A stretch of 64,000 nucleotides of DNA, taken from the NCBI GenBank assembly GCA_033580375.1, contig GCA_033580375.1_4527.1; one strand, written 5' to 3'. Positions 39,284 through 49,351 of this stretch are shown in pieces (position 1 is the first letter of the stretch; each line of letters opens with the position of its first letter). Below the pieces are notes generated by a model, which saw nothing but the letters and a program-made list of their open reading frames with translations, searched no databases and had not been told where the DNA came from. The position numbers were made by a program, and so were the translations under genes. The stretch is from a phage.

Positions 39284-39313
39284 ATAGTATCACACATCCA
39301 TGTGCTTGTAAAC
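39284..39313 (-). promoter_or_regulatory. Early-type promoter GTTTAC-N18-TACTAT for ORF 38961..39254
   Basis: Consensus blocks and conserved CATCAACAACATGAGGAA leader on the - strand. Confidence 0.55.
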
Positions 39314-41400
39314 TATCCTTGAACAAATTTAAATGGAACCGATTCTAAATCCATTAAAGATGCTAACAGTTTCAATCCTTTAGGTGCACTGTTTATTTCT
39401 ACGAATGAGGCAAAAGATACTGGCTCATTTGATTCGATTTCACCCGTCATAGCAACCACCTCGCCTGTTTCCATGAGAACATCACCGTCGTAAATGACTG
39501 CTTCATCCAACTGGTCTGAGGACATGACTTCGGCTTGAATAAATTTAAGGTTGGATTCTAAACCTGCACCAGTGTCAGATGACGCATCTGTAATTTTATT
39601 TATCTGCAAGAGAATGCCTCTAGGCAAAATAATTTCTTGCTCATTAGGGTGATTACTCAACTGTCCTGGATAAATCACGTTAACTTTATGGGCGCCATCA
39701 ATAGCCCATCCAACGTTAACACGGATTTGTTCTGGTGCATGCATAGCTGTTCTTACTTGACTAGGAGAAATAGTAACACCTTCGTCATTATTGTCAATGT
39801 TAAGCTCTTTGCGAACTTCTTCAGGAGCAAGTCCAAGGGCAACGTTCTCTTTAAACCCGCCGAAAATAATAGGAGCTAGTGAAGTAGAAACATAGTTTCT
39901 GAAGTAGAATACCTTATTTTTAACCATTGCTTCGTAAATAGGCATTCTGATAGACTGAGCTCTATACAACGTTAGTCCTTCAGGTAAACGGTCTCCATTT
40001 AAAAACGCCGAATCAAGACCATCAATAGCGCGTTTAACTTCATCTTCATCTGCAACATCATAAAAATCCGGTTTATAACGACCTAACAACATATTATTGA
40101 TATCGGTATACGCAGAAGAGGCATATTCACGAATAGCTCGTTTTTCAGCAACAGAGTATTGTTTAGGGTCACGATTCATTGTTATATTAAAGGTGCCTCT
40201 AGCCGATTCTCGTGCATAAGTATACATCACATTAGACAAGAACGCTGATTTACGTTGTTTCCAAGTTTTTTCAGATACTTCAGCTAAAACGTCGTCAGCC
40301 AGCTGGAAATTATCACGTCTAAAATCTTCAAACCATTCGTCTTTAATAGAGTCTGCAATTTCATTTGCAGCTTCAACAAAAGCAGCTAATGCTTTAACAG
40401 ATGTTGTTTTTTCAGTTTTAATTTTCTTAGCAAACTTTTCTAAAGTCGGCTTAATAACACTACCATAAGAAACTTCATCAGCAAATCTAAAGGATTCATC
40501 AATACGATTATAAATCTTATTTTCGATATCAGCAACTAAAGTGCCTTTTGCTGTGGACGATGCTTGGGCTAGTACGATTTCATATGCTTCAGGAAGTAAT
40601 TCGGCTGTAGCCGGGCCGCTAACTTCTTTAGCAGAATTTTCGTATTTCTGGAATAGCTCACCTTCTTGGCGATCTGCTTCTAAAGATTGACTTGCTGCAA
40701 TAGCTCGACGAGAAATTTTAGTACGAGCAATAACAGGCTTATCTTTACGTTTTTCTTCTACAGCAGCAATAGAACCAGCTATAGCCGTTTCTTTGGTGAC
40801 TTTTTCGCCAGTCTTTTTACTCACATAAACTTCACCAACATCAGAATCTACTTTCGTGTACAACTCTGTGTTAATGTTAGGGATGCCTTTAATATCTTCA
40901 ATGTTGGCATTTTTACGAACCATCATCACATATGTGTGTTTACCTGTGAATTGATACATTGCAGACAATACTTTAAAACGACCACCAGTTTTAGTAGAAA
41001 CTAAACGAGCAAGAAGAGTTTGAAGTTGTTGTCCACGTCCTTTCAATTTCTTGGTAGGGAATCGGAACAGAACTGCATCCATACGAAGAGCTTTAACCTG
41101 TTCATACACTGTATTGAAAATGGTGTTGATTGCATCAATAGGAGCAGGACCAAGGCCATTTTTCAATTCAGCGAGATTACCCTTTTCAGACAGACTCATA
41201 ATAACAACATGAGCGTATTTGTCGCCAAGTTTAACTTGTTTTACAGCGTCGCCTTCGGAAAGGTAAGAGAATAAACGAACTACGATGTTTGTATCGATAT
41301 CACCAATTTTCCAGACTTGTGGAACTTTAGCTTTAGGGTTCAAATTGATGACAGGAAGACTGCCTTCAGATTCAAACACTTCATTTAATTGTTCAGACAT
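39313..41400 (-). CDS. alt: Alt, packaged ADP-ribosyltransferase that modifies host RNA polymerase
   Basis: 695 aa versus T4 Alt 682 aa; position between 54 and 30 as in T4. Confidence 0.8.
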   Translation of the reverse strand: MSEQLNEVFESEGSLPVINLNPKAKVPQVWKIGDIDTNIVVRLFSYLSEGDAVKQVKLGDKYAHVVIMSLSEKGNLAELKNGLGPAPIDAINTIFNTVYEQVKALRMDAVLFRFPTKKLKGRGQQLQTLLARLVSTKTGGRFKVLSAMYQFTGKHTYVMMVRKNANIEDIKGIPNINTELYTKVDSDVGEVYVSKKTGEKVTKETAIAGSIAAVEEKRKDKPVIARTKISRRAIAASQSLEADRQEGELFQKYENSAKEVSGPATAELLPEAYEIVLAQASSTAKGTLVADIENKIYNRIDESFRFADEVSYGSVIKPTLEKFAKKIKTEKTTSVKALAAFVEAANEIADSIKDEWFEDFRRDNFQLADDVLAEVSEKTWKQRKSAFLSNVMYTYARESARGTFNITMNRDPKQYSVAEKRAIREYASSAYTDINNMLLGRYKPDFYDVADEDEVKRAIDGLDSAFLNGDRLPEGLTLYRAQSIRMPIYEAMVKNKVFYFRNYVSTSLAPIIFGGFKENVALGLAPEEVRKELNIDNNDEGVTISPSQVRTAMHAPEQIRVNVGWAIDGAHKVNVIYPGQLSNHPNEQEIILPRGILLQINKITDASSDTGAGLESNLKFIQAEVMSSDQLDEAVIYDGDVLMETGEVVAMTGEIESNEPVSFASFVEINSAPKGLKLLASLMDLESVPFKFVQG

Positions 41401-41440
41401 AGTGTTTTCCTTTTAGTAATAATTTATATTTATGCCAAAA

Positions 41441-41456
41441 AGAGCCCGAAGGCTCT
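41441..41456 (-). terminator. Stem-loop AGAGCC-TTCG-GGCTCT plus T-tract downstream of ORF 41456..41644
   Basis: - strand: TAA, stem-loop, TTTTTGG. Confidence 0.6.
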
Positions 41457-41644
41457 TAATCCACAATCGGGAGCAAAGTACGATAAACTTCAAAATTAGG
41501 GCCTTTTTCGTACCCATTAACGTTATCTACGAAAACCCGATACGAATTTTCATTAGGAAAATCTAATATAATCTGAGAGCAAGAGGTGGAAACATCTCCA
41601 CCGTCCTTCTTAGCTACAATAACTGTTTCTAAATAAGCTTTCAT
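41456..41644 (-). CDS. Hypothetical protein (62 aa)
   Basis: Start set to the ATG at 41644, which overlaps the ligase stop codon (TAATG). Confidence 0.45.
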   Translation of the reverse strand: MKAYLETVIVAKKDGGDVSTSCSQIILDFPNENSYRVFVDNVNGYEKGPNFEVYRTLLPIVD

Positions 41645-43137
41645 TATAAACCTGTCTGGGACCACGGTCCAAATACGTCTTCAAATGAATCCGCTTCTGT
41701 TTTATCAAAACGGAACCCTTTAATAATTGGAAGGAAAATACCTACAGTACCTTCACGGCCTTTAGAATGAACCCAACCATTACATTCGCAATCAGCAATA
41801 CGTCCGATCAATTTACCTTCACGAGCTTCGGTCATTAATCGTTCACGGTCTAAATCATGACGCTCGTCTAAAGGAATAAGAACCTTTACACCGTCAACTG
41901 TTTTATGAGTTGTATCTTTAAAACCTGAACCACAATCAGTTGTAATACGACGACAACGTGATACGAGTTCGACACCACCCAATTTGTTAGGGTCTTTAGA
42001 GTGTTCATAGTATCCTACAACTTCTAAAGCGATATCAATAACTTCTTTAAATTTAATTAGGTTCTTAGAGCGTTTGTTTTCCCAATATGAATCACGGTTT
42101 TTAAGGATAATACCTTCAAGACCTTGGTCAACATATTTTTTATAAACCACTTTAGCTTCGTCAAGATTACGAACTAACTGATTTTCAATTGGCTCAATTC
42201 GCTTAAAGCCTTCAGCCATATTTTCAAGAGCAGCAAAACGAACATCGTATTTCTGACCTTTAATTTTGCCATCAGAATAGACTTCATCTAAAGGAACATA
42301 GTCCCAGGCTTGAAGAACCATACCTTCCGCTTCTTTAGGAGAAATAGTCCCTTGAAGAGATTTATTTGCTAAACCGTTTGAAGTGCTACGGTCTGCAACT
42401 TGTACTTCTTCGGATTCTTCATTATCACCAAATAAGAACGACAGGTCATTTCCTGAGCTCACAGCCTTTTTAATATCAAATGAATGATAAACTAATTCAC
42501 CGTCGATTAAAACCCCATTAGGGTGTCTTTCACGAGCTTCTTTAGTCATTTCCATTAGTTCATCCGCTAATAGAGTAAGACCATGGTATTCATTACCAGC
42601 ACGAGAAAAAAATTGGACACCGTCATCGCGAACTTCAGCGAAACAACGAGCACCATCTGCTTTTAATTGGGCAAATGCGGGCCATTTAATATTTTTAGTA
42701 ATCAATTTCTCATCATATGCAGATGCTAACATCTGTGGTTGCAATTGAATAAGTCCTGGCCACACCTTATTCGCGATAGACACTGAAGCACCTACTTCAA
42801 GGTCGCGCATCATTACACGACGAAGGACTTCTACATCATCAGGTTTACCGTCAGCGATATAACCCATGAGCTCTTTAATTGCTGCATTACCAGTGAGTTT
42901 ACGAGTGGCTAATGTGAACTCAATAAAATCCAACATGTCATCTAATTCAAGAAGACCATATGCTTGGGACCTTTCACCTGGTCCTGGCCATTTCTTAATA
43001 TAATACTGGATACCACGTGCATATGTTAAACGATACACACGTTCAAGTAATTTGTTGTCCTTATTTTTCTTAAGGATTTCCTGTTTTGTTTTAGTAGAAC
43101 CGATCGCAGCTATTTGGTTTAAAATATCTAAAATCAT
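41644..43137 (-). CDS. 30: ATP-dependent DNA ligase gp30
   Basis: 497 aa; sequence MILDILNQIAAIGSTKTKQEILKKNKDNKLLERVYRLTY... matches T4 DNA ligase, including the KADGAR adenylylation motif. Confidence 0.95.
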   Translation of the reverse strand: MILDILNQIAAIGSTKTKQEILKKNKDNKLLERVYRLTYARGIQYYIKKWPGPGERSQAYGLLELDDMLDFIEFTLATRKLTGNAAIKELMGYIADGKPDDVEVLRRVMMRDLEVGASVSIANKVWPGLIQLQPQMLASAYDEKLITKNIKWPAFAQLKADGARCFAEVRDDGVQFFSRAGNEYHGLTLLADELMEMTKEARERHPNGVLIDGELVYHSFDIKKAVSSGNDLSFLFGDNEESEEVQVADRSTSNGLANKSLQGTISPKEAEGMVLQAWDYVPLDEVYSDGKIKGQKYDVRFAALENMAEGFKRIEPIENQLVRNLDEAKVVYKKYVDQGLEGIILKNRDSYWENKRSKNLIKFKEVIDIALEVVGYYEHSKDPNKLGGVELVSRCRRITTDCGSGFKDTTHKTVDGVKVLIPLDERHDLDRERLMTEAREGKLIGRIADCECNGWVHSKGREGTVGIFLPIIKGFRFDKTEADSFEDVFGPWSQTGL

Positions 43138-43403
43138 TTGATATCCTCGATTTTGGTTACGGTTCTATTATAAGCCACTTCATCTAGAAGCGATTTCAGC
43201 GTTTTCTGATAAGTGGTAACCCGTTTACCGAGTCCTTCAACATAATATTCTGAAATGTAGATGAACCCTTGTTCAACACACTCTTTAAATATTTCTGCGT
43301 CTTTTACTGAACGAAACAATGTCCAGTCTCGAAAGAACATGTTAACATGACCATAGTCACGTGTGGTATTTTTGCCATCTGTAATATCATGAACTACAAA
43401 CAT
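43134..43403 (-). CDS. Hypothetical protein (30.1-like)
   Basis: 89 aa ORF directly downstream of ligase. Confidence 0.55.
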   Translation of the reverse strand: MFVVHDITDGKNTTRDYGHVNMFFRDWTLFRSVKDAEIFKECVEQGFIYISEYYVEGLGKRVTTYQKTLKSLLDEVAYNRTVTKIEDIK

Positions 43404-43412
43404 AATTAACCC

Positions 43413-44231
43413 TTAACAATTTATAGTCCATTTAGACGAATCTAAAGGAAAGTTTTGAATCGTCCGCCATGGCTGCATATCGGTTGGTCCTGGGGTTCGC
43501 CAGGTATATGGAGTACGTGTTGTCGAGGGGCCACCAATTTGATTAGGCCATGCACCTGGACTTGTTGCACCAGATTCTTTAAGCAAATCCGCCAATCGTT
43601 TTAAAAGGTCTTCACGATCTGAATCTGAATTATTCTTAGGCAGAACCAAACGAGATTCAATATCATCCCACGTGTGTACACGTTGTGCAGTACGAGGAAT
43701 ATCATCACGTTCACCACGGGCCAACCAATAAATCGGTACATTAAGAATTTCTGCCGCATGGTCACAATGATGAGCTAAATCGTCAACGTAACAAATTACG
43801 TTATATTTTGTTTTAGCTAGTTCGAATAATTGTTCCTTTGAAGAATCATGACCACACATCATTACTTCAGAGAAAGCGCCTGGGAACAAAGCATTCAAAT
43901 TAAATTGTCTATTCAATCGAGCATCAATTGAATCACCTAACGCCGTTACGGCTACAAAATTATAGTCTTCTTTTAGTTTATTGATAACTCGAAGAGCATC
44001 CGAATAAGGCGCTAAGTAACGAATAAAATCAGAGCGATTATATTTTTCTATTAATTGTTTACCAAGGTTATCGTCGGTATTGAATAGTTTACCAGGAGAA
44101 ATAAATTTTTCGTCCTGAATCATTTTTAAAATATGTTCTAATGGAAGATTATATTTTTGGGCAAAATAAGGAAGTCCAGATTGCCAGCTTAAACATACAC
44201 CATCAATATCAGTCAAAATAGTAGGCTTCAT
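43413..44231 (-). CDS. HAD-superfamily hydrolase-like protein (30.2-like)
   Basis: 272 aa; N-terminal DxDG motif (ILTDIDGVCL) typical of HAD phosphatases. Confidence 0.6.
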   Translation of the reverse strand: MKPTILTDIDGVCLSWQSGLPYFAQKYNLPLEHILKMIQDEKFISPGKLFNTDDNLGKQLIEKYNRSDFIRYLAPYSDALRVINKLKEDYNFVAVTALGDSIDARLNRQFNLNALFPGAFSEVMMCGHDSSKEQLFELAKTKYNVICYVDDLAHHCDHAAEILNVPIYWLARGERDDIPRTAQRVHTWDDIESRLVLPKNNSDSDREDLLKRLADLLKESGATSPGAWPNQIGGPSTTRTPYTWRTPGPTDMQPWRTIQNFPLDSSKWTINC

Positions 44232-44695
44232 AAAGAGTCTCTTAATAGGTTTAACACATCAATAAATTCAGCTTCGGTTAGTATTGTATCATCTTTTGTT
44301 AGGTGGCTGGCCATGCTATGCTTCAAAATTTTTCCTTTAGAGGCTTGTAAGGCATCGCGAAACCCCTTGTTTTGGATCGCTGCTTCAAAATATGCATTTG
44401 TGTATAATTCTTTCCACGCTTCAGAGTATCTTGAAAATGGAACTCCTAACCAGAAGAGAGTCCCATGGTCCTGAGCTCTTGCATAAGACCTTCCAGCTTG
44501 CTGTGCAGCCAATCCAGACAACCCAAATATACGTCTTTGTTGTTCAACATTTTTCACCTTACATCCTTGGAGAAATCCTTCAAGACCTCCGAATTGAATA
44601 CCATCCATGACAAAAGGCCATTGGGCGAAATTACTTAATGCACATGACGGCCATTTGAAATTACTTCTTATTTCTAATTCAGACATCTTTAACAC
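44228..44695 (-). CDS. NADAR / YbiA (DUF1768)-like protein (30.3-like)
   Basis: 155 aa; motif ALSNFAQWPF...DG...EGFLQGCK resembles the YbiA/NADAR signature (SNF...WP...DG...E.YFQA.K). Confidence 0.55.
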   Translation of the reverse strand: MLKMSELEIRSNFKWPSCALSNFAQWPFVMDGIQFGGLEGFLQGCKVKNVEQQRRIFGLSGLAAQQAGRSYARAQDHGTLFWLGVPFSRYSEAWKELYTNAYFEAAIQNKGFRDALQASKGKILKHSMASHLTKDDTILTEAEFIDVLNLLRDSL

Positions 44696-44897
44696 TTATA
44701 ATTTCAACATCAGCCCAATGACCATAACCAGGTATACGGTCTTCGATAGATAAATTTCCGTCATTTTTAGGCATTTTAATTGACGTAACGTATGGTTCTA
44801 AACGGTTTTCTGCATAATATGGAAAAACATCTGTTACACGATAAGTAACTTCAATCATTTCCGTACCAAACAATTTCTTGATTAATTTTTTAAGCAT
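44679..44897 (-). CDS. Hypothetical protein (72 aa)
   Basis: ORF in operon orientation. Confidence 0.45.
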   Translation of the reverse strand: MLKKLIKKLFGTEMIEVTYRVTDVFPYYAENRLEPYVTSIKMPKNDGNLSIEDRIPGYGHWADVEIISVKDV

Positions 44898-44901
44898 TTT
44901 A

Positions 44902-45189
44902 TTAGAACCTCATCTGAAAGCCATGTGATTTAACATTACCGCCGCCGATATCAGAAATGTTAATTTCACTTGCAATCGAAGGATCGATGTCAATTTCACG
45001 ATTAAGTTTAGTGATAGCTAAAGTATCATGCCCATTTACTGTACGAAACTCCAAAGGACATACTACGTTGACATAGTGTTTAATTGACTCGCTAGTAGGT
45101 TGTAAATGGGCCGGAAGGTCTTTAGGTGCTTTAGAGAAAACAACTTCACAAAAGTTTTTGCGGGTATCAAAATAAGTGGTCATAAACAT
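44902..45189 (-). CDS. Hypothetical protein (95 aa)
   Basis: ORF with GAGGAA RBS 7 nt upstream of the ATG. Confidence 0.5.
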   Translation of the reverse strand: MFMTTYFDTRKNFCEVVFSKAPKDLPAHLQPTSESIKHYVNVVCPLEFRTVNGHDTLAITKLNREIDIDPSIASEINISDIGGGNVKSHGFQMRF

Positions 45190-45205
45190 AATATTTTCCT
45201 CAATA

Positions 45206-45221
45206 GGGAGCCGAAGCTCCC
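45206..45221 (-). terminator. Stem-loop GGGAGC-TTCG-GCTCCC between ORFs
   Basis: 6 bp stem directly after the upstream stop and before the RBS of the downstream gene. Confidence 0.5.
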
Positions 45222-45228
45222 AGTTAAA

Positions 45229-45594
45229 TTAGATATCGAATTCATTAAGAACTACATCAAAGATTGCTTCGAGATGTTCAGGTTTAGCTCGGTTACTCAG
45301 GATATGACGAATCCAAGTTTTAACCAGAAGTTTACGATTGACACCGTTCCAGCAAGGATGAGTACCTAAATCACGCTGACGGAAATCATCATCTAATGCA
45401 ATTTTGAAGTTGGAACCTTCCATCGTGATTGAAAGCGTGATGCCATTTTCAAATCGCATATAAACGTAATTAGGAGTCATGCACTGTTCGATTTCACAAA
45501 CTGTACCGTTTTTGTGTTTCCATAAGCAAATAACTTCAGAAGAACCAGCGATACCGTTAGAAACATATTTACGTTCGAAGTTGATGTAGTTCAT
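45229..45594 (-). CDS. Hypothetical protein (121 aa)
   Basis: ORF with own early promoter; weak similarity to the next ORF (shared CMTP motif). Confidence 0.5.
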   Translation of the reverse strand: MNYINFERKYVSNGIAGSSEVICLWKHKNGTVCEIEQCMTPNYVYMRFENGITLSITMEGSNFKIALDDDFRQRDLGTHPCWNGVNRKLLVKTWIRHILSNRAKPEHLEAIFDVVLNEFDI

Positions 45595-45635
45595 TTTATT
45601 CTCCAGATGTTTAAGTTGTTTGTTGGTACAGGTCT

Positions 45636-45664
45636 ATAATAACATAACCTGTACCAAAGTAAAC
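45636..45664 (-). promoter_or_regulatory. Early-type promoter GTTTAC-N17-TATTAT for ORF 45229..45594
   Basis: The -10 lies in the loop of an 8 bp inverted repeat GGTACAGG/CCTGTACC. Confidence 0.5.
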
Positions 45665-45668
45665 TGTT

Positions 45669-46037
45669 TTATGCAACTTTAATCCAATTGTCTAAATTTA
45701 AAACACCTTTGGCTTTCATTTTTTCGATCAGGTTATCTGCTGTAATGCGTCCATTTTGATACCATGTAACATCTTCAGAGTAACCAGTTTCTTCGTCAAC
45801 ATATGTTTCTGAACGAATTTTGCCGGTAATAATAGTTTTTAATTCGTATGTGTCACCTGTGAAAAAGTTTGCTAACACAATTTTCCAAGAGAAATCATTT
45901 GAAGGACCTTCAGGGGTCATACAACCTACGATCTCAAATTGCTCTTTGTATAACATCCACTGGAATTCTTTAATTTCGATAGCTTTATAACCGTCGTGGT
46001 CTTTACATTCGATGTATGAGTTCAGATTGATTTTCAT
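45669..46037 (-). CDS. Hypothetical protein (122 aa)
   Basis: ORF with own early promoter. Confidence 0.5.
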   Translation of the reverse strand: MKINLNSYIECKDHDGYKAIEIKEFQWMLYKEQFEIVGCMTPEGPSNDFSWKIVLANFFTGDTYELKTIITGKIRSETYVDEETGYSEDVTWYQNGRITADNLIEKMKAKGVLNLDNWIKVA

Positions 46038-46079
46038 TTTATTCTCCAGATTGTTTTATTGATTAGGTGGTACAAGTCT

Positions 46080-46108
46080 ATAGTAACACATCCTACAGGA
46101 GAGTAAAC
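46080..46108 (-). promoter_or_regulatory. Early-type promoter GTTTAC-N17-TACTAT for ORF 45669..46037
   Basis: Consensus blocks on the - strand. Confidence 0.5.
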
Positions 46109-46144
46109 ATCTTTTTAAACTTTTTCTGCCCTAAACGCACAAAA

Positions 46145-46162
46145 GGGAGACCGAAGTCTCCC
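46145..46162 (-). terminator. Stem-loop GGGAGAC-TTCG-GTCTCCC followed by TTTTGTG, after the small basic ORF
   Basis: Same hairpin as at 3313 and 62229, on the - strand. Confidence 0.6.
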
Positions 46163-46167
46163 TAAAA

Positions 46168-46344
46168 TTATGCAACAACCTTTCCAAAACGAGAAGCATC
46201 ATCTCGAAGAACTGCACGTGCTCTGCGCATGATCTTCTCAACTGTTTGATTAATACGAGAGTTCGACCCACGCTTGTATCCAGCGCGTTTAGAATCACCG
46301 ACTTTCTTTTCAACTGCTTTCTTTGCTTTAGTTTGTTTTGCCAT
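46168..46344 (-). CDS. Unannotated small, highly basic protein (58 aa)
   Basis: Not in the ORF track. Translation MAKQTKAKKAVEKKVGDSKRAGYKRGSNSRINQTVEKIMRRARAVLRDDASRFGKVVA; stop is followed at once by the terminator hairpin. Confidence 0.5.
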   Translation of the reverse strand: MAKQTKAKKAVEKKVGDSKRAGYKRGSNSRINQTVEKIMRRARAVLRDDASRFGKVVA

Positions 46345-46716
46345 TATAAATTCTCTTTAAATGAAAATGCAGGACTTATTGACATTGCCTGCTCAAGCCC
46401 TCAAGGGGAACATAGGTTTTTGGATATTTAACGACCAGGATAACCATAAACCCGTCATCATACCTTATAGCTCTTATCTGTTGCACACCGTTAGCTTAAA
46501 GGTTCCGGGTTCGATTTCTCGAGGATAAGATATATACTGATGGATATATAGGCCTTGAGGCGTACTCCCGATTAGCCATCACCTCGGGGTAGCATGCACT
46601 TACCGCTATAAGAACAACATTCAAGAGGTACACCGTAAAATTGTCGGGGCGGTACTTCTAAAACATACCGATTCGCAAATCGATAATCAGACAATTCGAC
46701 GGCTCCTCGATTTAAC

Positions 46717-46965
46717 TTACTTCAGGGTAATAACAAAATGACGAACTGCTTTACGAGCTGCTGAAGCCAGAGGCTTAGCATATTTCAATTCATCTTTCTG
46801 AGCCAGTACATCACGAAGATCGGCCTGTGCTGGATTCAGATGTTTGAAATATCGCAGGATTTCCAGTGCTTCGGCTTCAACATCAATTGACGCGCCGTAG
46901 TTTTCGTGGCCATTATTCCATGCATGGCGTTGCAGTTCAAGAGCGTGTTGTAATTGTTTAATCAT
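46717..46965 (-). CDS. rIII: rIII lysis-inhibition accessory protein
   Basis: 82 aa; sequence MIKQLQHALELQRHAWNNGHENYGASIDVEAEALEILRYFKHLNPAQ... matches T4 rIII. Confidence 0.95.
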   Translation of the reverse strand: MIKQLQHALELQRHAWNNGHENYGASIDVEAEALEILRYFKHLNPAQADLRDVLAQKDELKYAKPLASAARKAVRHFVITLK

Positions 46966-47081
46966 TTTAAATTCTCAATTCGAGATAATATTTAGTAGCC
47001 ACGTTCGTCTGAATTTCACCTTCTTTCGACAGGTCTCTCAGTTGTAGGCTACCGCTTAGAAGAGTGTTCTCTTCATATAGT

Positions 47082-47089
47082 TATTTATA
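47082..47089 (-). promoter_or_regulatory. Late promoter TATAAATA (- strand) upstream of rIII
   Basis: Reverse complement of TATTTATA immediately downstream of the gene 31 stop. Confidence 0.5.
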
Positions 47090-47422
47090 TCACTTATAAA
47101 GACACGGAATAGCTTTATAGTGGCATGTTACGAATTTCTGTTTAATTTCTTTAGGTTGTTTAAGACCTAAAGCCACAAATGGATGTGGAACATTTCGAAT
47201 TTGTCCAACTGGTAGTGGAGTCAAATCACCGACTTCAACAAAACCTTCAGGAACATCAGGACCTACAGAATGAACTACACATAGTTCAGGAACTTCACCT
47301 TGAACACGTTTACCAATCACAAGTCCTGATTCGGTAACTTCTTCATCACCTGCTTGAGCGGGTTCAGAAACCAGAATGACATATTCACCAACAGCACGAA
47401 TTGGGAGTTGTACTTCAGACAT
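47090..47422 (-). CDS. 31: Co-chaperonin gp31 (GroES analogue)
   Basis: 110 aa; sequence [34 protein letters not shown]... matches T4 gp31. Confidence 0.95.
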
Positions 47423-47479: not shown

Positions 47480-47788
47480 TTACATAAGAAGCAAACGTTC
47501 GACCGGAGTACCATCAACCGAAATTACTTTATCAAGGCGGAAAGAACGCCACTGACCTAACTTGGTATCGAATGCTCGAACTGATTCACGAGGTTCATAA
47601 CGAACTTCTGTTGCCGGATTGTTATTTTCGTATTTGACTTCAAGTTCGTCGCGAGAAGCAAACATCGTACGAACATCACCGTTAGCCTTTTCAAATACAA
47701 CACAATGAACGCCTACAGACAGAATAGTTTTAATACGTTCACGAAGAACCATAGTTTCTTGTTCAGTTAAAATCATATTATTCACCAC
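47480..47788 (-). CDS. Hypothetical protein (31.1-like)
   Basis: 102 aa ORF between cd and 31. Confidence 0.55.
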   Translation of the reverse strand: MVNNMILTEQETMVLRERIKTILSVGVHCVVFEKANGDVRTMFASRDELEVKYENNNPATEVRYEPRESVRAFDTKLGQWRSFRLDKVISVDGTPVERLLLM

Positions 47789-48359
47789 AAAAGTTTCGGA
47801 TTTGTTCCCAATTCAGAGAACGAAGATTATTACGAGAGTACTGAATTACTTCAATACCAGCTTGTTTTAGAATGTCTGCCCAATTTTCAGGAGATCGGTC
47901 ATATAATTCTGCATATACAACCTTTTTAATACCTGACTGCGTAATAGCTTTAGTACAATCAGGACATGGAGAAAGCGTCGTATATAACGTAGCACCTTCA
48001 ATAGAATTACCTTTACGAGCGGCAAACAAAATTGCATTCAATTCTGCATGGATTTCATTATTAGCAGACCATGCACTATGAGCAGCTCGATGTTCTTTGG
48101 CTAAAACAAAATTATCTACCCGTCCAAATGCTGTAGTGCCTTCTTTATGTCCAGCAACGATGACTGGGATTGGTTTATTCTTCAACCAACCGTTTTCAGA
48201 TGCATGTTCGCAACAGTTAACGCCACCTGCAGGTGAACCGTTATATCCAGTAGAGATAATGCGTCCATCTTTTTCAATGACGGCACCAACTTTCCATGAA
48301 CAACATTTTGATTCTTGAGAAATCAGATATGCAATCTGAAGGTATGTGCTAGCTTTCAT
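47778..48359 (-). CDS. cd: dCMP deaminase
   Basis: 193 aa; zinc-binding HAELNA...SPCPDC motifs of the cytidine/dCMP deaminase family. Confidence 0.9.
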   Translation of the reverse strand: MKASTYLQIAYLISQESKCCSWKVGAVIEKDGRIISTGYNGSPAGGVNCCEHASENGWLKNKPIPVIVAGHKEGTTAFGRVDNFVLAKEHRAAHSAWSANNEIHAELNAILFAARKGNSIEGATLYTTLSPCPDCTKAITQSGIKKVVYAELYDRSPENWADILKQAGIEVIQYSRNNLRSLNWEQIRNFCGE

Positions 48360-49351
48360 TATTGAACCTTATTAATATAAGTTAACAGCTCTTTAGTTTG
48401 TTCCCAACTGATGCACGCATCGGTAACGGAAACGCCATAGGACATATTATCAGAAATTTTTTGATTTCCTTCATGTAGGAACGATTCTATCATAATTCCT
48501 TTGACCAAATCATTAGCTGCTAAATTTTTACCAATACCAATTTGATTGCTATAATGCCCTTCAGCGTTTGCATGGCTACAGTCAACCATTACATAATGAT
48601 TCAGACCTACTGCCCTTGCTTTGTTAGAAGCTTCTTGAATATCAGAAGAATGATAGTTCGGGCCGTTGGTCCCGCCACGCAATACGATATGCGTATTCTG
48701 ATTACCTTCAGCTTCAACAATGCCTACAGTACCATCGACGTCCATACCCATATACCGATGAGGCCAGGCGGCACTATACATCGCGTCTGTAGCTACTTTA
48801 ATAGAACCATTGGTTGCGTTCTTGAAGCCTACGCACATCGGTAGACCTGAAGCAATTTCACGATGTGTCTGACTTTCAGTCGTACGGGCGCCAATAGCAA
48901 CCCATGAGAAAATACCAGAAAGATACTTAATCGTGAATGGGTCTAATACTTCAGTTGCTAATGGAAGTCCCATACGTAGAAGTTTACGACACAATGTTCG
49001 TGCAACTATAAGACCGTGGTTCATATCAAAACTTCCGTCAAGATATGGATCATTTACAAGACCTTTCCAACCTACGGTAGTTCGAGGCTTTTCAAAATAA
49101 ACGCGCATCACTAACAGAACATTAGGAAGACGAGTTTGAAGTTCAGCCAGACGTTTGCCGTATTCAACAGCAGCAATAGGGTCATGAATTGAACAAGGAC
49201 CTACAACAATAAGTTTGCGTGGGTCTTCACCGTTCATAATCGAATTAACTTGTTCGCGATGAGAAGCCACTTGTGATGCGTAAGCTTCCGACAAAGGAAT
49301 AATCTCAGCCAGTTCTTTTGGAGAAATAAGTTTTCCGACGACAGGTAACAT
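48359..49351 (-). CDS. 3-deoxy-D-arabino-heptulosonate-7-phosphate (DAHP) synthase, class I alpha (AroG/AroF-like); auxiliary metabolic gene
   Basis: 330 aa; motifs LIVVGPCSIHD, RVYFEKPRTTVGWKGL, GARTTESQ, DCSHAN, IESFLHEGNQ and SVTDACISW match the AroG active site. Stop overlaps the cd start (TAATG). Confidence 0.85.
   Translation of the reverse strand: MLPVVGKLISPKELAEIIPLSEAYASQVASHREQVNSIMNGEDPRKLIVVGPCSIHDPIAAVEYGKRLAELQTRLPNVLLVMRVYFEKPRTTVGWKGLVNDPYLDGSFDMNHGLIVARTLCRKLLRMGLPLATEVLDPFTIKYLSGIFSWVAIGARTTESQTHREIASGLPMCVGFKNATNGSIKVATDAMYSAAWPHRYMGMDVDGTVGIVEAEGNQNTHIVLRGGTNGPNYHSSDIQEASNKARAVGLNHYVMVDCSHANAEGHYSNQIGIGKNLAANDLVKGIMIESFLHEGNQKISDNMSYGVSVTDACISWEQTKELLTYINKVQ

Follow-up and report, generated by a model that had tools for sequence, protein, structure and literature searches.

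An RB69-like T-even phage carries an intact adfN (T4 gene 30.3) that encodes a predicted NADAR-fold protein

The DNA analysed here is a stretch of 64,000 nucleotides of phage origin (contig GCA_033580375.1_4527.1 of GenBank assembly GCA_033580375.1), referred to below as the window. A minus-strand gene with its 3' end at position 44228 is an intact orthologue of gene 30.3 of phage T4, whose product gp30.3 has been named AdfN, for anti-DarT factor NADAR (Johannesman, Awasthi, Carlson & LeRoux, Nat Commun 2025, PMC11825919; bioRxiv 2024, PMC11257639). Very probably, the encoded protein is a NADAR glycohydrolase specific for guanine-linked ADP-ribose (G-ADPr) that counters DarTG1, a bacterial toxin-antitoxin system of the abortive-infection type, in this phage. 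The identity of the gene, its intactness, the fold of its product, the conserved residues and the purifying selection were determined here; enzyme activity and the anti-DarTG1 phenotype are taken from the literature on the T4 protein, which is 96% identical. The gene family, its fold, its chemistry and its anti-defence role were already published between 2023 and 2026, and the finding is therefore not new.

Identity and integrity of the window gene

In a Pfam scan, the window protein matched family PF08010 (Phage_30_3) with 231 bits (E = 4e-69), far above the gathering cut-off of 36 bits, and covered the complete profile (positions 1-138 of 138). Homologues were found by tblastn in 1511 phage records, with hosts in Escherichia, Aeromonas, Acinetobacter, Vibrio and Ralstonia. 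Profile score, number of homologues and the ratio of non-synonymous to synonymous divergence (dN/dS, given below) confirmed that the open reading frame (ORF) is genuine and far from a chance occurrence. In PHROGs, the protein is assigned to phrog_652, a family of 'unknown function'.

The preliminary description of this DNA, made by a model from the letters and a list of translated ORFs, had placed the gene at 44228-44695 with a length of 155 amino acids. The reading frame is real, but its start and length had to be corrected. The GTG start at 44695, which comes from a mechanical ORF call, was rejected in favour of an ATG at 44684-44686, its fourth codon, giving a protein of 152 amino acids. 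The stop codon (TGA) of gene 30.4, which lies upstream, overlaps this ATG (ATGTCTGA), the equivalent ATG is the annotated start in T4, RB69, Bas46, Bas47 and Ec_MI-02, and the numbering that follows from it matches the published residues E36 and K43. The GTG start is almost certainly wrong, and the gene spans 44228-44686 on the minus strand (Table 1).

The 3.1-kb region around the gene showed 98.9% identity to Shigella phage ESh27 and 92.8% nucleotide identity to RB69, with PhAPEC2 also among the closest matches. Since the nearest matches of this region are to ESh27, PhAPEC2 and RB69, the window was assigned to an RB69-like (Mosigvirus) T-even phage. The records of Bas46 and Bas47 are classified as Mosigvirus phapec2.

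RB69 is the closest classical genome by nucleotide identity, and the first 137 codons of its gene 30.3 are 96% identical to those of the window. After codon 137, RB69 carries a one-base T insertion that removes the last 15 residues and thereby the C-terminal helix. This phage is sensitive to DarTG1. DNA alignment showed that this insertion is absent from the window, which reads CTA ACC GAA GCT where RB69 reads CTA ACT TGA. Therefore, the window protein reads on to a C-terminus identical to that of T4 (...EAEFIDVLNLLRDSL). Over its whole length, which equals that of T4 gp30.3, amino acid identity to the T4 protein is 96%. It is 99% to the protein of Bas47, with one K11R change, and 97% to that of Bas46, with four residues differing.

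The gene is under strong purifying selection. Relative to T4, dS was 0.53 and dN 0.031, a dN/dS of 0.06, and relative to Bas47 dN/dS was 0.01. Despite a dS of 0.53, adfN retains its 96% amino acid identity to T4, whereas the neighbouring products of 30.2, 30.1 and 30.4 share only 70%, 56% and 53%, respectively (window 43134-44897). As judged from these comparisons, the allele most likely encodes an active AdfN, and the phage is most likely resistant to DarTG1, unlike RB69.

T4 gene 30.3 has an annotated internal overlapping ORF, 30.3' (75 amino acids), which was considered as a conserved feature and rejected. In the corresponding +1 frame of the window (44323-44550, minus strand), a stop occurs after 34 codons; the frame is thus not conserved and 30.3' is probably no real gene.

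Disrupted natural alleles of adfN that lack the catalytic N-terminus were also observed in T-even phages other than RB69. SV76 has an N-terminal truncation, RPN226 carries deletion fusions (30.7::30.3 and 30.8::30.3), NR1 has a frameshift allele, and Shigella phage SP21535 (L007:1186-1377) retains only the last 57 residues of AdfN. The occurrence of several disrupted alleles suggests recurrent loss of this anti-DarTG1 gene.

Predicted NADAR fold and active-site residues

The YbiA/NADAR-like motif block reported in the preliminary description is present in the ORF and comprises residues A16-L-S-N-F-A-Q-W-P-F25, D28-G29 and E36-G-F-L-Q-G-C-K43. An alignment of 77 homologues, with identities down to about 35%, showed that S18, N19, F20, E36, K43 and H123 are invariant. 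The profile built from this family matched E. coli YbiA (2b3w, E = 0.006) with the SNF motif, the glutamate and the lysine aligned to YbiA S30-N31-F32, E48 and K55. The catalytic glutamate and the SNF motif, whose misalignment had been named beforehand as grounds for discarding the assignment, both align. In addition, weak matches to PF08719 (NADAR) were found in 32 of the 77 family members, the best with an E-value of 1.5e-7.

An AlphaFold2 model computed from the family alignment was confident (predicted local distance difference test, pLDDT, 93; predicted template modelling score, pTM, 0.89). When it was compared with the PDB by Foldseek, the top three matches were YbiA, a Phytophthora NADAR with ADP-ribose (8bau) and the Geobacter lovleyi DarG1-type NADAR (8bat), so the structural comparison with YbiA that had been suggested as a check came out in favour of the assignment. 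The predicted structure shows the NADAR fold, with small sheets on the flanks of an alpha-helical core, in a core-only form of 152 residues.

The spacing of the E-x6-K block is identical to that of E43/K50 in PnNADAR and E88/K95 in the E. coli C7 NADAR. In those enzymes, the two residues make contacts to the distal ribose and to the phosphates, and G-ADPr hydrolysis requires them (PMC11543638). The residue of the last strand differs between subfamilies, being Glu in the YbiA type and Asp in the DarG1 type, while His is a hallmark of phage NADARs (PMC11125620, PMC11543638, PMC12945103). H123 of the window protein is the His at this catalytic position, as in phage NADARs.

With T4 AdfN, the window protein shares E36, K43, H123, the C-terminal helix and the place of the gene, which is flanked by 30.4 and 30.2 and lies downstream of the ligase gene. 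The genomes differ, T4 being a Tequatrovirus and the window phage a Mosigvirus, with arabinosyl-hydroxymethylcytosine DNA as judged from the published statement on RB69. DarG1 antitoxins (E. coli C7 NADAR and G. lovleyi 8bat) have Asp in the place of H123, and their NADAR domains of 187-219 amino acids contain an extra N-terminal helix and sheets, whereas the window protein consists of the core domain only. No DarT toxin was found among the neighbouring proteins scanned, where the only ADP-ribosyltransferase was Alt, of the exoenzyme type. Since no DarT toxin lies beside it, adfN is an orphan gene and not the DarG1 of a DarTG1 operon.

E. coli YbiA (2b3w) and PF08719 share about 16-20% identity with the window protein and have Glu instead of His on the last strand. 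YbiA is an N-glycosidase of riboflavin intermediates that also removes cytosine-linked ADP-ribose (C-ADPr), which the T4 NADAR does not (PMC11543638, PMC12945103). Two other phage NADARs, NADAR-Bas32 of T5-like phages and NADAR-Bas60 of Vequintavirinae, resemble AdfN in countering DarTG1. They were independently acquired from other NADAR branches, and they neutralise DarT1 even in uninfected cells and also rescue phages unrelated to their own. In contrast, the gp30.3 type fully works only in T-even infections.

Role against DarTG1 and alternative explanations

The NADAR superfamily hydrolyses guanine-N2-ADP-ribose and supplies the DarG1 antitoxin of DarTG1, and phage gp30.3 proteins form one of its subfamilies (PMC11543638). 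G-ADPr hydrolase activity of T4 gp30.3 has been demonstrated in vitro in three papers (PMC11257639, PMC11125620, PMC12945103). The enzyme removes G-ADPr but not thymine-linked ADP-ribose (T-ADPr) from single-stranded DNA (PMC11125620), it is inactive on C-ADPr (PMC12945103), and purified AdfN strips ADP-ribose from DarT1-modified DNA (PMC11257639, PMC11825919).

The genetic evidence comes from the same work on AdfN (PMC11257639, PMC11825919). Among the Tevenvirinae tested, RB69 alone is not resistant to DarTG1, and in this phage a T insertion at nucleotide 411 of 30.3 makes the protein 15 residues shorter. Resistant chimeras of RB69 with T2 or T4 had all gained the 3' end of 30.3. Deletion of adfN renders T4 and T2 DarTG1-sensitive, ectopic AdfN from T4 fully rescues RB69, and the E36A and K43A variants and an RB69-like truncation of T4 AdfN show impaired or reduced activity. 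The Mosigviruses Bas46 and Bas47 are fully DarTG1-resistant although their adfA allele is of the inactive type. In an independent screen (HIDEN-SEQ), transposon insertions in adfN were lost on DarTG1 hosts, where the gene is conditionally essential. On E. coli K-12 it is dispensable, and the phenotype on DarTG1 hosts is the only one reported (PMC11257639; HIDEN-SEQ). No association of AdfN with the toxin was found in a two-hybrid test (PMC11257639). The reversal of DarT-type DNA ADP-ribosylation as an anti-defence function, put forward in the preliminary description, agrees with this published role of the T4 orthologue.

In the favoured reading, the DarT1 toxin of a DarTG1 host ADP-ribosylates N2 of guanine in the phage DNA and blocks replication, as shown in the literature. 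AdfN would bind the ADP-ribose and cleave the N-glycosidic bond, giving free ADP-ribose and unmodified guanine, and replication could proceed. By analogy with the structure of PnNADAR with ADP-ribose, K43 would contact the phosphates, with E36 and H123 positioned around the distal ribose. AdfN would act as an orphan antitoxin mimic whose target is the DNA lesion, without association with the toxin, and would be specific for guanine-linked ADP-ribose, leaving the thymine- and cytosine-linked forms. The prediction that this RB69-like phage, unlike RB69, is DarTG1-resistant is of use for forecasting host range and for phage therapy or phage engineering. The sequence adds no new mechanism.

Several points weigh against this reading. 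Six residues differ from T4 AdfN (window to T4: K11R, H74R, E89P, I120V, M125I and H128G), with no known catalytic residue among them. In the profile check against NADAR/DUF1768 that had been proposed in the preliminary description, the weak matches given above came from other family members, and the window protein itself had no match to PF08719, even at E ≤ 1, or to NCBIfam; a comparison with PDB chain sequences also gave no match, even at E ≤ 10. Therefore, the assignment to NADAR is based on the profile of the family and on the predicted structure. The E36A and K43A variants lose rescue only in part according to the final paper (PMC11825919), and the catalytic scheme is to that extent provisional. 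AdfN from T4 fails to rescue E. coli from DarT1 or to replace DarG1 in uninfected cells (PMC11125620, PMC11825919) and barely helps non-T-even phages such as T5 or Bas25 (PMC11825919), which makes a simple model of enzyme plus lesion incomplete. DNA modification does not explain this T-even dependence, since T4-GT7 still depends on and is protected by AdfN, and an unknown T-even cofactor was proposed by the authors (PMC11825919). Finally, the methods of the Toxins 2024 paper give the T4 NADAR (gp30.3) construct as residues 1-208 (PMC11125620), as opposed to 152 amino acids in NC_000866; extra sequence may have been included, or another accession may have been the source.

An extension of the favoured reading, in which AdfN requires a T-even-encoded partner (30.2 or 30.4) or has a second substrate (guanine-ADP-ribosylated RNA or tRNA), is possible but rather unlikely. 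If it were true, AdfN would belong to an ADP-ribose detoxification module with several components and would not be a stand-alone eraser. NADARs are reported to remove G-ADPr from RNA as well (PMC12945103). As regards a partner, the adjacency of 30.2 and 30.3 is kept in T4 and Bas47 (Tevenvirinae) and in one Acinetobacter Lazarusvirus, and it is absent from Aeromonas 44RR2, Salmonella Melville, Vibrio D525, and Ralstonia RsoM2USA and RSP15. Since the adjacency is lost in these five distant phages, synteny gives no support for 30.2 as an obligate partner; a partner encoded in trans may still act with AdfN.

In three phages, the gp30.3 homologue lies inside a phage tRNA cluster and not beside the ligase gene or 30.2, namely Aeromonas 44RR2.8t.2 (L009:3001-3450), Salmonella Melville (L010:3004-3447) and Ralstonia RSP15 (L013:2995-3513). 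The idea of an RNA or tRNA substrate draws on this placement, which may reflect only a plastic region.

The preliminary description had also considered action on phage-generated ADP-ribosylation. An eraser of the phage's own modifications, either the arginine ADP-ribosylation of host proteins by Alt, ModA and ModB or the RNAylation by ModB, is very improbable, and this part of the description found no support. The Alt ADP-ribosyltransferase gene (PF03496, 6e-28) does lie close by, about 2.8 kb away where about 3 kb had been stated, and the arrangement alt-ligase-30.2-30.3 also occurs in an Acinetobacter Lazarusvirus. Yet distant phages carry their 30.3 homologues apart from alt and ligase, so there is no conserved linkage between alt and 30.3. 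In addition, the substrates on which NADARs were active in the papers considered here are all base-linked N-glycosides (guanine, and cytosine for some families), with T4 gp30.3 acting on guanine-ADPr only (PMC11125620, PMC12945103), and the K-12 and DarTG1-host phenotypes described above also argue against it.

Less probable still is a YbiA-like damage-control N-glycosidase that acts on riboflavin-pathway intermediates or another small-molecule N-glycoside, with no part in DNA repair or anti-defence. That subfamily is defined by the last-strand Glu, which is an invariant His in the gp30.3 family, the T4 orthologue acts on DNA with a clear DarTG1 phenotype, and riboflavin damage control is of no obvious use to a lytic phage.

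A decayed, non-functional allele as in RB69, leaving the phage DarTG1-sensitive, would fit the RB69-like genome and the common occurrence of disrupted alleles in nature (RB69, SV76, NR1, RPN226, SP21535), but it is hardly credible given the lack of the RB69 insertion, the T4-like C-terminus, the retention of every invariant residue, dN/dS values of 0.01-0.06 and the 99% identity to AdfN of the DarTG1-resistant Bas47.

Neighbouring genes and further observations

Following the RB69 annotation, the order on the minus strand is alt, alt.1, gene 30, 30.1, 30.2, 30.3, 30.4, 30.6, 30.7, 30.8, 30.9, rIII, 31, 31.1 and cd. By homology, adfN would belong to the early gene run that extends from 30.9 as far as gene 30. 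It overlaps both neighbours, with its start codon at the stop of 30.4 and its stop codon at the start of 30.2, an arrangement that points to translational coupling. The distance to alt was taken from the 5' end of alt (41400) to the 3' end of adfN (44228).

Table 1. Features of adfN and neighbouring genes in the window
Feature	Position	Strand	Remarks
adfN (gene 30.3), coding sequence	44228..44686	-	152 codons plus TGA stop; ATG at 44684-44686
S18-N19-F20 codons, NADAR 'SNF' motif	44627..44635	-	invariant in 77 homologues; aligned with YbiA S30-N31-F32
E36-x6-K43 active-site block EGFLQGCK	44558..44581	-	E36 codon 44579-44581, K43 codon 44558-44560; aligned with YbiA E48/K55
H123 codon	44318..44320	-	invariant in 77 homologues; directly after the last predicted strand (residues 120-122)
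Codons 138-152, C-terminal alpha-helix	44231..44275	-	predicted helix 138-151; lost in the RB69 frameshift allele
alt, ADP-ribosyltransferase	39313-41400	-	PF03496, 6e-28
Gene 30, DNA ligase	41644-43137	-	from RB69 annotation order
30.1	between gene 30 and 30.2	-	DUF3045
Gene 30.2, 272 amino acids	43413..44231	-	weakly HAD-like, N-terminal DIDGV motif; ATG overlaps adfN stop (4-nucleotide ATGA)
Gene 30.4, 72 amino acids	44679..44897	-	upstream of adfN; no Pfam match; TGA stop overlaps adfN start (ATGTCTGA)

A hydrolase of the haloacid dehalogenase (HAD) type had been described as lying two genes away from adfN. The gene in question, 30.2, is in fact immediately adjacent downstream, and its HAD matches were all below threshold (Pfam HAD_2, E = 0.02; TIGR01428, E = 0.09; PDB 5'(3')-deoxyribonucleotidase, E = 0.77). 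The DIDGV motif at its N-terminus is typical of HAD phosphatases, and its PHROG family is of 'unknown function'. The last ~90 residues of 30.2 are of low complexity and rich in Pro, Thr and Trp.

A scan for sigma-70 promoters and terminators in the region 41400-47100 gave 19 sites, no excess over the 17.9 ± 4.3 obtained with shuffled sequence. A tRNA scan and an Rfam gathering scan of the whole window gave no matches.

In the window, 30.4 is directly followed by 30.6 (44897-44902), as in RB69, whereas Bas46, Bas47 and T4 have an extra gene of ~195 nucleotides at the 30.5 position. Comparison of this junction with the 30.5-position genes (L003:2091-2285 and L004:2106-2300) showed a small indel polymorphism in a plastic early region.

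Further upstream, a gene for a class I DAHP (3-deoxy-D-arabino-heptulosonate 7-phosphate) synthase of 330 amino acids, AroG/AroF-like (PF00793, 3.7e-75), was found at 48359-49351 on the minus strand. It lies directly upstream of cd (dCMP deaminase, 47778-48359), and a gene of this kind is missing from the corresponding position in RB69 and T4. The gene occurs in 213 phage records (PhAPEC2-like Mosigviruses, Klebsiella and Serratia phages and others), where it is already annotated as phospho-2-dehydro-3-deoxyheptonate aldolase.

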